Positions 5,604-19,614 of a DNA stretch of 64,000 nucleotides are shown here, piece by piece (position 1 is the stretch's first letter; the number at the start of each line of letters is the position of its first letter). The notes under the pieces were generated by a model. It had not been told where the DNA came from and searched no databases. It saw only the letters and a program-made list of their open reading frames with translations. Location of the stretch: assembly GCA_018822435.1 (NCBI GenBank), contig JAHJKD010000050.1, positions 1,531 through 65,530 on the forward strand. Reading direction: 5' to 3'. This DNA is from Patescibacteria group bacterium. Its GTDB lineage: Bacteria; Patescibacteriota; Patescibacteriia; UBA9570; JAHJKD01. The position numbers and the translations under genes are program-made.

Positions 5604-5973
5604 ATATCTCTCTTGGTTTATCTTGTTCTAAAAAATCTCCTAAATCTCGCTGCAAAACGTCAAAACTAAGAGTGTCTCGAAACATGAATTCTCCATTTTC
5701 TTTTTTTGCTTCCCATACCATTACCGCAAAATTCTTTAAATCTTCTTGCAATCCCTTGATAATTTTCTTGGAAGGATTCGGACCACAAGTCGAACGATCC
5801 AAAGCAAAACCATGATCAATCTGACCTCCGACATCCCATATTTCTCGACTTCCCTCGTAAGGTTCATCAGCATCAATATATTCATATAAAAAACGAAAGG
5901 CATCATTTAAGGCCTTCAAGTCATCTAAGTGGCTTATGAGGCTTAAAAATGTTGTAAACTCTTTTTCAGTCAT
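5587..5973 (-). CDS. Hypothetical protein
   Basis: 128-aa ORF. Its start overlaps the Elp3 stop (ATGA) and its end overlaps the HD gene start, so the three genes look like one operon. No family recognised. Confidence 0.6.
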   Translation of the reverse strand: MTEKEFTTFLSLISHLDDLKALNDAFRFLYEYIDADEPYEGSREIWDVGGQIDHGFALDRSTCGPNPSKKIIKGLQEDLKNFAVMVWEAKKENGEFMFRDTLSFDVLQRDLGDFLEQDKPREIYGKNR

Positions 5974-7508
5974 ATATTTTTTACCATATAATTATCCTCT
6001 AAATTATAACCCAATTTTCGATAATAGTCCCTTACACCTACTCCGGAGATAACCCAAAGATTGTCATGGCCAGCTTTCTTAGTCAGAGCTTCTGCTTCAG
6101 CCAATAATTTCTTGCCGAAACCAAAATGCTGGACTGCCTTTTCGCCTTTTGCCAGCTCCAGCATCTGCCCATAAGTATGAAGCTCACGAATAAAAGCTTT
6201 TTCTCCCAATCTCAATCGACAAAAAGCAAATAAATATTTTTCATCAGAAGATTCATAAGTTAAAAATATTTCTTTACCGCCTGAAGCCACATAGCCTCTT
6301 TTTACTAACTTGGCCTCACTCAAATCTACTTTAGCCTCACGCGGCTCTCTACATCTGATGCATTTGCACTCAACTCCCCCATCTTGAAGTAATTGCCTCA
6401 AATTAGACACAGTGCTTCCCGCCACGATCGACTCCTGGGGAATATCGCGAATTAATCTCGCAATCCTGACATACTCAGGCATCTCTTTCTTTACCTTTTT
6501 AAGCAATCCTACCAATTCTTCAGTAGTATATGGCTTATACTTTCCCTCTTTATACCATTTATATAATTCCGATCCTTTCGTGACTACGCACGGATAAATT
6601 TTAATCTGGTCTGGCTTAAAATCCGGATTTGTAAATAACTCCCGGAACATCTTATGGTCCTTATCCAAATCAGAGCCCGGCAGATTCGGCATCATATGAT
6701 AAGTTATTTTAAATCCGGCATCTTTTAATAATTTAGTCGCTTGAATAGTTTGCTCTACTCTATGCCCTCTCTGGTTTAGGTCTAAAATATCATCATAGAC
6801 AGTTTGCACGCCCAGCTCGACCCGAGTCGCCCCAAAATCTAACATACGCTGCACTTCTTTTTCATCTACATAATCCGGCCTGGTCTCCAGAGTTAGCCCC
6901 ACCACTCTATGTTCTGCTGTCTCATTTAGTTTCTTAGCCTCTTCCAAATCTTTAGATTCTTTTTTATTATAACCATCATAACAACGCTTAATAAAATCCT
7001 CCTGATATTCCGGCGGCAAGCAAGACCATGTTCCGCCCATCACAATCAACTCACACTTATCTGTCGGATGACCATTGTCATACAAAGCCCGCAGTCTCAT
7101 TTCCACTTGCTTATAGGGATCAAACTCACATAAAACTGCCCGCATCACCGCTGGCTCATTAGAAAGATAAGATTTAGGCATGTCTTTTTCCGTAGGGCAA
7201 TAAACACATTTTCCCGGGCAAGGATGTTCGCGAGTTAAAACAGAAATCACTGCCACACCCGATAAAGTTCGGACATCTCTTTTTCGAAGCATTCTAAAAA
7301 GCTGTTCGTCTTCTTTTATCTCCCCTTTTTTTACTAGAGATCTATATGCCTTAAGAATTTCCGCATTTGTCGCCATGCCTGTGCCATCTTTCTTGGCAAT
7401 CTCTCCTTTTATACGTCGAAGCTGGATCACGTTCTTGGGCTTTTCTTTTATGGCTAATTTTACCAATTCTTCTAGGGCTTTTTTCATAGGGTTATTATAT
7501 ATGAACAT
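5970..7508 (-). CDS. elp3: Elp3-family radical SAM / GNAT acetyltransferase (tRNA U34 cm5-type modification enzyme homolog)
   Basis: 512-aa ORF. Radical-SAM cluster motif CPGKCVYCP, then a TIM-barrel-like region and a C-terminal GNAT motif QHFGFGKKLLAEAE. This is the Elp3 architecture. Confidence 0.85.
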   Translation of the reverse strand: MFIYNNPMKKALEELVKLAIKEKPKNVIQLRRIKGEIAKKDGTGMATNAEILKAYRSLVKKGEIKEDEQLFRMLRKRDVRTLSGVAVISVLTREHPCPGKCVYCPTEKDMPKSYLSNEPAVMRAVLCEFDPYKQVEMRLRALYDNGHPTDKCELIVMGGTWSCLPPEYQEDFIKRCYDGYNKKESKDLEEAKKLNETAEHRVVGLTLETRPDYVDEKEVQRMLDFGATRVELGVQTVYDDILDLNQRGHRVEQTIQATKLLKDAGFKITYHMMPNLPGSDLDKDHKMFRELFTNPDFKPDQIKIYPCVVTKGSELYKWYKEGKYKPYTTEELVGLLKKVKKEMPEYVRIARLIRDIPQESIVAGSTVSNLRQLLQDGGVECKCIRCREPREAKVDLSEAKLVKRGYVASGGKEIFLTYESSDEKYLFAFCRLRLGEKAFIRELHTYGQMLELAKGEKAVQHFGFGKKLLAEAEALTKKAGHDNLWVISGVGVRDYYRKLGYNLEDNYMVKNI

Positions 7509-7535
7509 CGAATTTTAGACGAACTCGAATTAGTT
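7509..7535. repeat. Left arm of the 27-bp inverted repeat flanking the GxxExxY gene
   Basis: CGAATTTTAGACGAACTCGAATTAGTT. The reverse complement of 8356-8382 is CGAATTTGGGACGAACTCGAATTAGTT, giving 25/27 identity with an 18-bp perfect core. Confidence 0.85.
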
Positions 7536-8324
7536 CCTAATAAAATTCCAATTTAATCTTGTCCTATTGAAGTTTGCAATTAATCCTAGCTTAATATTAA
7601 AATATTTCAAGTTTTTCTTCATTTTTTCAATTTCAATTTCTGATATTTCTTTCACTGCTAAAACTCTAACTAATATTTTATTTTCAATAAAAAATAATTT
7701 TACATCGCTTTCCCCAAGGATTTCTCCCTTAAAAGACATGGATTTTTTCTTTTTATACAAAAAGGGAATGCCATTATTTCTTAATTCTATCCATAAGGCC
7801 CTTCTATATACATAATGAAAAAATCCTGGCCCTAAAATTGAATGAACTATTAATAAACAATCAAGAACATCTTTCGATAATCCTGGATAAAGCAAATCAG
7901 GTTTAATAGTTATTTCATTTTTTGGTTTAAAATTTTTATTTTTTAATTTTAAATTATTTATAACTCTCTCATACTGTGCCTTTTCTGATCCAAAATTCAT
8001 TAATATTCCTAAGGAGTAATCAGTAACTTTCAAATAAGAAATTAATTGGGCGATATTAATAGGATGAATTTCATCTCGCGCCTTCAATTCTAAAATTATT
8101 TTATCTTGCACAACAATATCAGGACGACAAAATCCTATTTTATGTCCTTTATAAAGCATGTCTAAAGGTTTCTCTAAAACAAAATTAATTTTCTTTTTGT
8201 TTAAACCAATCGCCATTGCTTTCTGATATATTTCCTCTTTATGTCCTGGGCCAATTTTATTATAAACATCATAATAGACACCTTGTACTAAATAAGATAA
8301 TTCCGGAAAAATAATTTCAGTCAT
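7530..8324 (-). CDS. Tandem GxxExxY-domain protein (PD-(D/E)XK nuclease-like superfamily)
   Basis: 264-aa ORF made of two homologous halves. The first half carries GHKEEIY (GxxExxY). The second half is degenerate (GFFHYVY). Confidence 0.75.
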   Translation of the reverse strand: MTEIIFPELSYLVQGVYYDVYNKIGPGHKEEIYQKAMAIGLNKKKINFVLEKPLDMLYKGHKIGFCRPDIVVQDKIILELKARDEIHPINIAQLISYLKVTDYSLGILMNFGSEKAQYERVINNLKLKNKNFKPKNEITIKPDLLYPGLSKDVLDCLLIVHSILGPGFFHYVYRRALWIELRNNGIPFLYKKKKSMSFKGEILGESDVKLFFIENKILVRVLAVKEISEIEIEKMKKNLKYFNIKLGLIANFNRTRLNWNFIRN

Positions 8325-8355
8325 AAAATATATGGATAATTAATAAATAATTAAA

Positions 8356-8382
8356 AACTAATTCGAGTTCGTCCCAAATTCG
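8356..8382. repeat. Right arm of the 27-bp inverted repeat flanking the GxxExxY gene
   Basis: AACTAATTCGAGTTCGTCCCAAATTCG, the partner of 7509-7535. Confidence 0.85.
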
Positions 8383-8512
8383 GTGTTCATATTCCTCATA
8401 CCAATTCGCGCCCGCGTATGATTCGCGGTAGTCTTCGCGATTGCCAATAAAAAAACGCCCAATGTTTGCCATTTGGACGCCGTAGTTATATATTAAAGGA
8501 AAGAATAACATT

Positions 8513-9190
8513 ATGCAACCATCGCAAGCTCGTGAAATATTGGCCCAAGTTAAGGCTGATTACGATAAAATTGCCCCTCATTTTGCTCAAACCAGGGCAC
8601 AAGGCTGGTCAGAATATGAGGAATTTAAGCCCTATTTAAAAAAAGGCGACGAAGTCTTGGATTTAGGCTGCGGCAATGGCCGTCTTGTTGAATTCCTAAT
8701 TCCTCTTGGAATTAAATACACAGGCTGTGATAATTCTAATCAATTATTAAAATTTGCGTCGGAAAAATATACTGACACCAAATTTGTCGTCGGTGACTTC
8801 ATGCATCCCCCTTTTGAAAAAGAAGAGTTTGATGTGGTCATGGCCATTGCCAGCTTGCATCATGTTCCTTCAGGGGAATTACGCCTGAGAGCCTTAAAAG
8901 AAATTTATCGTATTTTAAAACCAGGTGGATATCTGCTTATGACCAATTGGTATCTTTATCAAAAAAAATATAAGAAGTATATTAAAAATAATAAGGGCAA
9001 AATGGACAAAGGTGACGCCATAATCCCCTGGAAAGACAAATACGGAAATACCCAAGCAGAAAGATATTACCATGCCTTCAAACAAAAAGAGCTCAGCAAG
9101 CTAGCTAGGCAAATCGGTTTTAAAGTTATTTCCCAAAATATGAACGAATCAAAACAAGAAAGAAATATTGTCAGCATTTGGAAAAAATGA
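8513..9190 (+). CDS. Trm9/ALKBH8-like class I SAM-dependent methyltransferase
   Basis: 225-aa ORF. YDKIAPHFAQTR, LDLGCGNG, FDVVMAIASLHHV...RLRALKEIYRILKPGG, AIIPW and RYYHAFKQKEL align block by block with yeast Trm9 (YNEIAPHFSQTR, IDVGCGNG, FDFAISIAVVHH...GG, VFVPW, RYYHLYREGEL) as I recall it. Confidence 0.75.
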   Translation: MQPSQAREILAQVKADYDKIAPHFAQTRAQGWSEYEEFKPYLKKGDEVLDLGCGNGRLVEFLIPLGIKYTGCDNSNQLLKFASEKYTDTKFVVGDFMHPPFEKEEFDVVMAIASLHHVPSGELRLRALKEIYRILKPGGYLLMTNWYLYQKKYKKYIKNNKGKMDKGDAIIPWKDKYGNTQAERYYHAFKQKELSKLARQIGFKVISQNMNESKQERNIVSIWKK

Positions 9191-18023: not shown

Positions 18024-18761
18024 ATGGCAAATAATATGGAAGGGCGACGGCCAGCTCAAGAGCTGGAGTCAGCCAAAAATGTTACTAAAGAAGAGCTGGA
18101 AAAAATCGCCAAGAAAAAATTGAATTTTATGGTGAAAAAGGATGGATTAATTCTTGCTAGCTCGTTTGAAGATCTCAATTTGGGGGATGATGCCCAAGAC
18201 ACTGAAGGCAGTCCTTATGAATGGTTCCAAATCTTTGATGAAAAAGACCATCCCTACCGAATTGAAGGTAATGATGTCGTTCTTTATCGGAAGGAATGTC
18301 ATGGAAAAGGAAGAATTGAGAACGTTTATCATCGCGGCACCGATGTTTGGATAGTGAACCCAAAGAACGAACTCATGGTCCCTGTTAGAAGTGCAAAAAA
18401 AGACCTCTACTCCTCTATGGGAGACAACAGTGTAAGTGAACATAATAGCATAAGAGAGCCGTATTTAGGCACTGCCGTTAGGGGTTTCCAAGAAGAGCTT
18501 GGAATATCGGTCCCCCCTGAAGGACTATCCCTTGTGTGCAAATTTCCAGTGCATGATAAAAATCAATGGCAATGGTCTCAATATTACGTATTTCCCGATA
18601 AAGAAGGAAAATATAATCCGTCTGAAGAAGAAATAGGGGAAGTCCGCTGGATTCCCTTACAAAATTTATTTACAGAGGAAGGGATAAAAAAAATAAATTT
18701 TCGACTAGACCATTTACCCGCTCTAAAAGTATTTCTAGAAAAAATAAAAAATAAAAAATAA
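18024..18761 (+). CDS. Nudix hydrolase (IDI-like subfamily)
   Basis: 245-aa ORF with a Nudix box region GTAVRGFQEELGI and an upstream ...HRGTDVWIVNPKNELMV... layout. Confidence 0.7.
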   Translation: MANNMEGRRPAQELESAKNVTKEELEKIAKKKLNFMVKKDGLILASSFEDLNLGDDAQDTEGSPYEWFQIFDEKDHPYRIEGNDVVLYRKECHGKGRIENVYHRGTDVWIVNPKNELMVPVRSAKKDLYSSMGDNSVSEHNSIREPYLGTAVRGFQEELGISVPPEGLSLVCKFPVHDKNQWQWSQYYVFPDKEGKYNPSEEEIGEVRWIPLQNLFTEEGIKKINFRLDHLPALKVFLEKIKNKK

Positions 18762-18766
18762 AAAAA

Positions 18767-18793
18767 CGCCCGCCTATCAAGCGGGTCTTTTTT
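18767..18793 (+). terminator. Conserved hairpin family, copy 3
   Basis: CGCCCGCCTATCAAGCGGGTC followed by T6. Confidence 0.7.
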
Positions 18794-18832: not shown

Positions 18833-19531
18833 ATGGGAGAAAAATACGAATACAATCAAAGTGGTGCAGAAGCCTACAAAGAATTAGGTATCGAGGGAAC
18901 TACATATGAAATGTCATTCTCTGAGATGAAAAGGATGCTTGGAAATATTCAAGGCATGAATTTTTTAGATTTCGGCTGCGGTTCAGGTCGTAGCGCACGA
19001 TTCCTAAAAACTCTCGGCGCTAAAAACGTCATTGGTGTTGATCATAATGAATCTATGATAAAACAGGCCAAGGCAACGGCAGTACAAGGGATTGATTTCA
19101 GGCTGATCAAAGAAAAAATTCCTCTAGACGATGATTCCGTTGACGGCGTAATTAGTTCAGCAGTTTTCTTAGAAATAAAAAATTTGGCTGATATGGAAAA
19201 AACGGCCAGGGAAATTGCCCGAGTTCTCAAGCCCGGTGGCGTATTCATACTAGTTACCGTAAATCCGGACGCCTTCGGGCATGATTTTGTAAGTTTTACC
19301 AGAACAGGAAACCCTGCAGAACTCGAAAGCGGCGATATGACTGAATGCCGGATGAAAGGAAAAAAACCATTTGTAATAGATGATATATTCTGGACCGAAG
19401 ACGATTATAGACAAGTGCTTGAATCAGCCGGTTTTACCATCGAAGATATTGTTTTCCCGAAAGCAGAATCAGGTAATTGGCTGGATGAAACAAATGTCGC
19501 ACCTGATATGGTCATAAAAGCAACAAAATAA
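18833..19531 (+). CDS. Class I SAM-dependent methyltransferase
   Basis: 232-aa ORF with motif I FLDFGCGSGR and a later LKPGGVFILV. The promoter TTTACA-N16-(TGa)TAAAAT ends 6 nt before the ATG, so the mRNA is possibly leaderless. Confidence 0.8.
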   Translation: MGEKYEYNQSGAEAYKELGIEGTTYEMSFSEMKRMLGNIQGMNFLDFGCGSGRSARFLKTLGAKNVIGVDHNESMIKQAKATAVQGIDFRLIKEKIPLDDDSVDGVISSAVFLEIKNLADMEKTAREIARVLKPGGVFILVTVNPDAFGHDFVSFTRTGNPAELESGDMTECRMKGKKPFVIDDIFWTEDDYRQVLESAGFTIEDIVFPKAESGNWLDETNVAPDMVIKATK

Positions 19532-19534
19532 AAC

Positions 19535-19561
19535 GACCCGCCTATCAAGCGGGTCTTTTTT
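19535..19561 (+). terminator. Conserved hairpin family, copy 4
   Basis: GACCCGCCTATCAAGCGGGTC followed by T6. Confidence 0.7.
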
Positions 19562-19614
19562 AATTTTTTAACCACTTCTTCTGAACACCAAAATTTGATA
19601 TACAAAAGAAGGGG

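Follow-up and report, generated by a model that had tools for sequence, protein, structure and literature searches.

The 64,000-nucleotide stretch of DNA analysed here (the window) encodes, on the minus strand, the radical SAM/GNAT tRNA U34 modification enzyme Elp3 (5970..7487; TIGR01211, 1.5e-174) and, divergently on the plus strand, a Trm9-like class I SAM methyltransferase (8513..9190; Methyltransf_11). The best match of the methyltransferase to a solved structure was chain 5cm2_Z (E = 3.6e-18), deposited as 'tRNA methyltransferase', which we take to be the Trm9-Trm112 complex. Between these two host genes lies a minus-strand gene encoding a tandem GxxExxY protein of the PD-(D/E)XK type (7530..8324; 264 amino acids), bracketed by inverted repeats. 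A preliminary description of this DNA had proposed that the GxxExxY gene and its repeats constitute an inserted cassette that splits a divergent Elp3/Trm9-like gene pair. The comparisons reported below bear out the insertion, through empty sites in relatives, repeats that are linked to the gene, and an identical cassette found in two contexts elsewhere.

Both domains of the GxxExxY protein matched PF13366 (PDDEXK_3; 184.1 bits against a cut-off of 22, 1.2e-54) and TIGR04256 (188.2 bits against a cut-off of 35, 4.5e-56), in two stretches each, which confirmed the tandem gene as first read and makes it a clear member of the family. The protein fuses two domains, of which the second is catalytically degenerate: the N-terminal domain (approximately 7950-8324) has E30, D69, E79 and K81, and the C-terminal domain (approximately 7533-7907) has lost its catalytic residues (GxxHxxY, with AxK in place of ExK). 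In an alignment of 20 tandem family members, E30 (of GxxExxY), D69 and E79-x-K81 were invariant in the N-terminal domain, and the C-terminal domain of all 20 had GxxHxxY, no conserved Asp, and A-x-K/Q. Since the catalytic residues are kept in the N-terminal domain only, each chain is predicted to have one active site. The AF2 model of the protein (pLDDT 91, pTM 0.83) confirms a generic, restriction-endonuclease-like PD-(D/E)XK fold, in agreement with the superfamily named in the preliminary description; the nearest structural neighbours of the model were Cas4 and restriction-endonuclease-like proteins, none of them close. The cassette contains no second ORF and no known transposase or recombinase, and its protein has no Pfam family other than PF13366. 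A defence-system or phage protein was considered and rejected, there being no family match in PADLOC or PHROGs.

GxxExxY proteins form 9,588 clusters at 50% identity (E <= 1e-3). In a survey of the PD-(D/E)XK superfamily, PF13366 was assigned the function 'Unknown' and the remark 'multiple transfers' (PMC3424549). No characterised member was found in the literature, and no description of such cassettes or flanking repeats turned up under GxxExxY, PF13366/TIGR04256 or the IVS-protein names, or under the sequence of the repeat.

The repeats were first described as a 27-nucleotide inverted pair (7509-7535 and 8356-8382; 25/27 identical, with an 18-nucleotide perfect core). Direct reading confirmed this pair, and a repeat search extended it to 43 nucleotides (7499..7541 and 8350..8392; 38/43 identical, 88%). 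The Elp3-side arm, which reads ATATGAACATCGAATTTTAGACGAACTCGAATTAGTTCCTAAT from the outside in on the plus strand, includes the stop codon (7530-7532) of the GxxExxY gene; the inner methyltransferase-side arm is 91% identical to it over the aligned core. The 18-mer core occurs at only 2 sites in the 64 kb with no mismatches, and 0.06 matches would be expected by chance in the window with three or fewer. A third related unit lies farther out on the methyltransferase side (8399..8436, minus strand; GAAGACTACCGCGAATCATACGCGGGCGCGAATTGG), with the canonical ACTAC terminal motif and a CGAAT-N12-CGAAT doublet (8404-8425) in the same orientation as the 8350-8392 arm. This unit resembles the GC-rich variant of two other loci (L050 and L107) and is probably the true end of the cassette on the methyltransferase side. 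The layout in the window can be written >>[G]<, where G is the GxxExxY gene, and three CGAAT-type doublets in 917 nucleotides have a Poisson probability of about 1e-6. When the 42 long ORFs of the window were scored for inverted flanks, the GxxExxY gene ranked first with a score of 61; the second-best score (38) came from a duplicated self-complementary terminator hairpin. No further copies of the unit were found elsewhere in the 64-kb window, so that the search for other copies suggested in the preliminary description was fruitless within the window; beyond it, a unit of about 30 nucleotides was found beside tandem GxxExxY genes at other sites in other phyla.

One detail of the preliminary description has to be revised: the Elp3-side repeat had been placed 1 nucleotide from the Elp3 start codon. 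The ATG in question (7506-7508) is inside the extended repeat, and the start of Elp3 is most probably at 7487, because gene callers give a 505-amino-acid protein and the Elp3 orthologue of a related locus (L006) begins at the matching MK... residues. With the start at 7487, the repeat lies upstream of Elp3 and does not abut the start codon.

A search of reference genomes for Elp3 yielded 34 loci. At 13 Patescibacteria loci, the methyltransferase and Elp3 genes lie next to each other in divergent orientation, the GxxExxY gene is absent, and the start-to-start spacer ranges from 72 nucleotides down to overlapping starts, compared with 1,025 nucleotides in the window; the repeats are likewise absent from these relatives, where the spacers are 0-72 nucleotides. 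The GxxExxY gene has a GC content of 26% against 41% for the window, and no other stretch of 820 nucleotides in the window is as poor in GC as the one between the arms (25.5%; window mean 41.4%, sd 4.6), which is about 3.5 sd under the mean, with the minimum exactly at 7541. The empty sites in relatives that the preliminary description proposed to look for were found. The only carriers at the Elp3 site are the lineage of the window and two others (L006 and L040), with the gene order methyltransferase(-) / GxxExxY(+) / Elp3(+). The preliminary description had reasoned that relatives with the gene and without the repeats would speak against a cassette; both relatives with the gene have repeats (42-nucleotide arms, 79% identical, in L006; 53-nucleotide arms, 75%, in L040), so that the bracket is present in all three carriers, and the single unit of L006 and L040 matches the outer methyltransferase-side unit of the window in position. 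L040 is nearer to the window than L006 by Elp3 (85 vs 76% identity), methyltransferase (67 vs 60%) and GxxExxY protein (54 vs 50%). The simplest history that these identities suggest is that the cassette was inserted once, in an ancestor, and then descended vertically, its gene changing faster than the two host genes; a single insertion suffices because the three carriers form one clade. By these comparisons the copy in the window did not arrive recently but is an old one passed on by vertical descent, and, having kept its site through a 24% divergence of Elp3, it may no longer move or may have been domesticated.

Features of transcription adjoin both ends of the cassette. On the methyltransferase side, a promoter-like site (TTGCCA-17-TATATT; 8466..8494, plus strand) lies outside the cassette and is conserved in L006 and L040. 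Its -35 element is overlapped by a hairpin followed by a U-run on the host side just outside the cassette (8448..8481, minus strand; MFE -12 kcal/mol, z = -2.2), which is kept with compensatory changes in both L006 and L040 (z = -3.4 in L040). On the Elp3 side, direct reading revealed a TATAAT box at the outer edge of the cassette (7494..7499, minus strand), 6 nucleotides before the probable Elp3 start at 7487; in all three carriers this box is 0-5 nucleotides outside the unit and 6-7 nucleotides before the Elp3 ATG. The cassette gene is on the same strand as Elp3 and 42 nucleotides upstream of it. Because of this gene arrangement and the closeness of the box to the ATG, Elp3 may lack a leader or share a transcript with the cassette gene. 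To either side of the cassette, the promoters look rebuilt.

Tandem-domain GxxExxY proteins also occur in Chloroflexota, Planctomycetota and other phyla, with identities of 30-52%. The four further members looked at first were all bracketed by inverted repeats at unrelated sites, one of them between purE and purK. A metagenome scan contributed 80 loci, and 82 tandem-GxxExxY loci were assessed by the criterion that the best inverted alignment of the upstream and downstream flanks must exceed those of all 30 shuffles. By this measure 68 of the 82 loci, from several phyla, were bracketed, compared with 0 of 35 neighbouring control ORFs at the same loci; a significant bracket was missing in 14, and a profile of CGAAT/CGGAT type did not detect the unit in 23. 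The preliminary description had allowed for repeats that occur only here, as a regulatory palindrome, which these counts contradict; the bracket belongs to the gene and not to the locus. Family ORFs were also lower in GC content than their own flanks at 96% of 52 loci.

The arms at these loci are copies of one unit of about 30 nucleotides (ACTACAACGAAT-N11-CGAAT) that points at the gene. Its consensus, ACTACAACGAATTnGGnAAnGGAACGAATT, contains two CGAAT-type half-sites 16-17 nucleotides apart, for which the lineage variants include CGGAT, CGGAC, CACGAT, CACAGAG and GCGAATC, and its outer terminus resembles (A)ACAC(T/A)ACAAC. Unit density was 5.05 per kb within 250 nucleotides of the ORF and 0.17 per kb farther off, a 30-fold difference, and units were oriented toward the gene on both sides (68+/31- upstream, 28+/66- downstream). 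Among loci with detected units the commonest layout was >[G]<, with the inner end of the upstream unit 25-65 nucleotides ahead of the ORF start, and some loci had arrays with a 16-17-nucleotide period and up to approximately 9 half-sites. When other loci were used to build a unit profile (nhmmer/PWM), the arms of the window did not come out on top, because the profile is dominated by 16-nucleotide spacing and the spacing in the window is 17 nucleotides; the homology of these arms to the family unit rests on the shared doublet design and on direct alignment. Aligned with the family unit, the Elp3-side arm retains the invariant CGAA and CG columns; in an alignment of the arms of the window with those of six other loci, the same columns were invariant and the AC-rich terminal motif was common to all.

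At the Elp3 site the two arms are more similar within a genome (91, 79 and 74%) than same-side arms are between genomes (44-68%). Since the arms group by genome and not by side, the two ends have been kept matched by concerted evolution, a pattern to be expected where a single protein has to recognise them both. Of six plasmid-borne genes for single-domain GxxExxY proteins, three (from Bernardetia, Treponema and Bacteroides finegoldii) were clearly bracketed by comparable arms, composed of doubled or reiterated short motifs, a fourth had a repeat hairpin on one side only, and the other two were ambiguous.

One clear case was found of the same element at more than one genomic site. The cassette P0015 occurs in two contexts (L045 and L047) with 0 differences in the 807 nucleotides of its ORF, and it has the look of recent activity. 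In L044 and L045 the purE stop precedes it and the purK start follows, the sequence being ...GCAGTGAAG/ATGACAACGAAT...ATTCGTTGTCATCAC/CATGAAT..., and in L047, a 1.25-kb contig that includes one flank only, unrelated sequence follows ...GTCATCAC. Of the P0015 contigs, two start at ATGACAAC and three stop at GTCATCAC, in each case precisely at a unit terminus; from these breaks it follows that the 915-bp block behaves as a separate assembly node. The empty purE-purK junction of the P0015 host is predicted to read ...GCAGTGAAG followed by CACCATGAAT or CATGAAT.... Other near-identical gene pairs shared the same context, with changes in unit copy number and one IS-like insertion. The preliminary description had called the element mobile or homing-type: mobility is supported by the identical P0015 cassette in two contexts, but strict homing is disfavoured because that copy sits in unrelated flanks.

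The ends of the elements are discrete: at 35 loci, arm similarity ceased 0-8 nucleotides outside ACAACGAAT. At the same loci there was no sign of target-site duplication, a 2-nucleotide match being present at 1 of the 35 against approximately 2.2 expected, with none longer. Inverted pairs of units without a gene were found away from the gene at some loci (for example L116 and L059, in flanks of 2.5 kb). No dispersed unit copies were detected in the Bernardetia replicon at BLAST sensitivity, for which a 36-nucleotide query is too short to be informative. No trans-acting enzyme was consistently near the cassettes. Approximately 75% of cassettes were co-oriented with their neighbours, and the purE-purK copy is inside an operon.

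On balance it is probable that the stretch from 7499 to approximately 8436 is an old copy, passed down vertically, of a compact mobile cassette from a hitherto undescribed family, and that the encoded protein binds the ends of the cassette, cuts, and moves it. In an ancestor of this Patescibacteria lineage, the cassette would have been inserted where only a very short divergent promoter region separated the Trm9-like and Elp3 genes, and would have been inherited vertically thereafter. The end repeats are probably, to judge from their conserved design, the binding sites of the encoded nuclease-like protein, which would bind reiterated half-sites in double-stranded DNA at both ends, its one intact and one degenerate domain acting somewhat as a built-in heterodimer. 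Cleavage would occur at or near the outer ACTACAAC termini, and the cassette would be moved or copied without a staggered cut of the target and without target-site duplication. We know of no precedent for transposition by a lone PD-(D/E)XK protein.

Several other explanations were weighed against this one. It is unlikely, though to be taken seriously, that the cassette is foreign but its protein is not a mobility enzyme, the units being operators for its own gene or the neighbours, or sites used by a recombinase or transposase that is the host's or acts in trans, and the protein having another cellular role such as repair or defence. The inner end of the upstream unit does lie where a promoter or operator would sit, 25-65 nucleotides before the ORF; the copy in the window has long remained intact with its catalytic residues conserved, as a gene useful to the host would; and there are neither target duplications nor a known transposase. 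Operators, however, would not explain mirror-oriented units downstream, where arrays reach approximately 9 half-sites, and the assembly breaks and the change of context fall exactly at the outer unit termini; nor does the protein match a defence-system or phage family, or a candidate trans-acting enzyme recur nearby. Far less can be said for a regulatory palindrome or duplicated promoter specific to this locus, with GxxExxY an ordinary resident gene. The arms do face outward to Elp3 and the methyltransferase, and the TATAAT box abuts the Elp3-side arm, but the methyltransferase is preceded by a conserved promoter of its own that is not part of the cassette, GxxExxY genes of other phyla have the unit on both sides at loci unrelated to this one, and gene-less relatives with spacers of 0-72 nucleotides lack the repeats. 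A locus-specific bidirectional promoter, or a duplication of the 5' end of Elp3, was rejected on the first two of these grounds, and this explanation is barely credible, being in our view disproved by these observations. An integron-type cassette was also rejected: there is no integrase, and the repeats are mirror-oriented at both ends and located at scattered single sites.

Two further alternatives invoke single-stranded nucleic acid. In a system like REP/RAYT, pairs of units in single-stranded DNA would fold into hairpins that the protein cuts and rejoins, so that the gene is inherited vertically in single copy while small pairs disperse. Back-to-back inverted pairs capable of forming hairpins are present at many loci (L097, L067, L103, L131 and L043), orphan pairs are present off the gene (L116 and L059), and gene and flanking repeats persist vertically, as those of RAYTs do (PMC3116915, PMC3337134). 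Such a mechanism is nevertheless improbable for the cassettes, in which the commonest detected layout, and that of the window itself, is a single unit per side, approximately 800 nucleotides apart and forming no hairpin; the unit is non-palindromic and lacks a GTAG/CGTC tag, the fold is PD-(D/E)XK and not that of an HUH tyrosine transposase, and dispersed copies are absent from the 64-kb window and, at BLAST sensitivity, from the Bernardetia replicon. Still more doubtful is an element acting in RNA like the intervening sequences of 23S rRNA, in which the arms would pair in a read-through transcript; RNase III, for example, would then process the stem, and the host operon would tolerate the insert because the ORF is released or silenced. 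An intervening sequence with an ORF and terminal inverted repeats provides a precedent (PMC4990558), the arms enclose the whole ORF, and both the co-orientation of approximately 75% of cassettes with their neighbours and the purE-purK copy within an operon would accord with read-through. Against this, mismatches between arms that are wobble-compatible on either strand numbered 95 and 102 (p = 0.67), 224 of 421 (53%) were transversions, the sequence of the arms is conserved across phyla beyond what pairing demands, neither tandem arrays of half-sites nor one-sided layouts form stems, and there was no Rfam match. An RNA processing stem was rejected on the negative wobble-asymmetry test and the lack of an Rfam match, and recognition of double-stranded DNA is favoured over an RNA helix because of the absence of wobble bias, the proportion of transversions and the conservation of sequence across phyla.

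Among known systems, the closest in its working is a small transposon whose terminal inverted repeats are accompanied by subterminal arrays of binding sites; the cassette differs from it in the type of transposase and in target duplication. The ends of Tn7 and Mu combine terminal inverted repeats with subterminal binding-site arrays. Like insertion sequences and DNA transposons, the cassette is a discrete element with terminal inverted repeats, reiterated end sites, a distinct outermost terminus and, in one clear case, an identical copy in a different context, but it has no DDE, HUH, serine or tyrosine recombinase, its sole gene being of the PD-(D/E)XK type; it has no target-site duplication (1 of 35 loci), and it is present as one copy per locus with no multi-copy spread in the window. 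It shares with REP/REPIN-RAYT systems (PMC3116915, PMC3337134) a single gene with inverted units, vertical persistence, and gene-less pairs in some genomes, but its enzyme is PD-(D/E)XK and not HUH/Y1 (IS200/IS605-type), and its units are non-palindromic and have no GTAG tag. Homing endonucleases include a PD-(D/E)XK enzyme, I-Ssp6803I (PMC3943268, PMC3384342), and free-standing homing endonuclease genes are similarly small nuclease-type intruders with occupied and empty sites (3 and 13 in the present case) and a patchy distribution among phyla. Such genes, however, lack conserved terminal repeats, whereas the cassette carries its own ends; homing requires homologous flanks, whereas an identical cassette is in unrelated flanks and the family is at many unrelated sites; and no intron or intein is involved. 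The ORF-bearing intervening sequences of 23S rRNA (PMC4990558) resemble the cassette in a small, selfish-looking ORF, terminal inverted repeats and a location in essential host DNA. The cassette differs from them in its location outside rRNA, between protein-coding genes (the 64-kb window has no rRNA genes), in its ORF family, and in its arms, which are conserved in sequence and show no signs of selection for an RNA stem.

As far as we have found, the recurring design of gene and end repeats across several phyla has not been described previously. A broader proposal, which we make tentatively and hold to be possible but not probable, is that GxxExxY genes are the autonomous core of an unrecognised class of prokaryotic mobile elements, in which a lone PD-(D/E)XK protein recognises arrays of short half-sites at both ends of its own cassette of approximately 0.5-1 kb, moves or copies it between genes, and leaves no target duplication; the protein with two domains would then correspond to a single-chain variant that has one active site. 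Should the protein prove to be the enzyme of mobility, it would represent a new enzymatic route to DNA transposition or insertion, and a compact, sequence-directed nuclease with a known site of approximately 30 nucleotides. For the organism in the window, which belongs to the CPR, the cassette indicates that a streamlined genome tolerates a 1-kb intruder in the shared promoter region of a two-step tRNA wobble-uridine pathway. For annotation, the repeats flag such inserts and can help to avoid miscalled start codons of neighbouring genes, as with Elp3. The GxxExxY/PDDEXK_3 proteins are a large family of small proteins of unknown function that clutter bacterial annotations; their packaging with repeats, as units AT-rich relative to the host that split conserved gene pairs and appear unchanged in new contexts, gives this family a testable biology, in which the unit of approximately 30 nucleotides offers a defined DNA substrate for the first biochemistry.

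The ORF of the tandem-GxxExxY cassette was lower in GC than its flanks at 96% of the 52 loci of this type compared (L053-L132 set), by a mean of 7 points, independently of host composition. At the related locus L137 (and also at L138-L143), tandem arrays of half-sites with a 16-17-nt period extend for ~150 nt on either side of the ORF; those of L137 comprise approximately five half-sites upstream and nine downstream (repeats of ATTCGTTCTCATCCTA), with the ACAAC terminal motif present on the outermost copy only.

Comparison of two loci from the tandem-GxxExxY set, L069 and L072, revealed cassettes that are identical except for an insertion of ~1.4 kb in L069 (311-1709), which contains an ORF of ~400 amino acids and adjoins the upstream repeat unit. 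The blocks flanking this insertion both match the same 9 nt of L072 (1874-1882), as in a target-site duplication, and on the basis of this match the inserted segment is probably an insertion sequence. At L144/L145 (1666-3052), the cassette is located between small ORFs with a faint match to HsdM_N and a weak match to T1RH-like_C, and may occupy a disrupted type I restriction-modification locus.

Directly beyond the methyltransferase-side end of the cassette, a hairpin followed by a U-run (window 8448-8481, minus strand; L006 972-1000; L040 1034-1068) is kept in all three loci that carry the cassette between the methyltransferase and Elp3 genes, with compensatory changes in the stem. It overlaps the -35 element of the methyltransferase promoter. 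In the cassette-sense direction it looks like a terminator, although no gene leads into it from that side. Both methyltransferase-side repeat units are spanned by an ORF of 64 amino acids (8317-8511, minus strand), called as 51 amino acids in one public assembly, for which a search found no family match and which is unlikely to be a real gene. Elsewhere in the window, a duplicated self-complementary terminator hairpin (18752-18792 and 19530-19570; GACCCGCCTATCAAGCGGGTC with A/T runs) accounts for the second-highest inverted-flank score; its copies are located 3' of two consecutive genes, one for a NUDIX hydrolase and one for a further class I methyltransferase.

The Elp3 gene appears as several ORFs in table 11 translations of four loci labelled Gracilibacteria, Peribacteria or Patescibacteria (L025, L027, L028 and L031), which would fit an alternative genetic code with UGA as a sense codon. 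In the window, the longest Elp3 ORF starts at an ATG (7506-7508) that falls within the repeat, and the likely start is at 7487. A TATAAT box (7494-7499) is located just 6 nt upstream of the latter, with matching geometry in L006 and L040, and thus the Elp3 mRNA may be leaderless.
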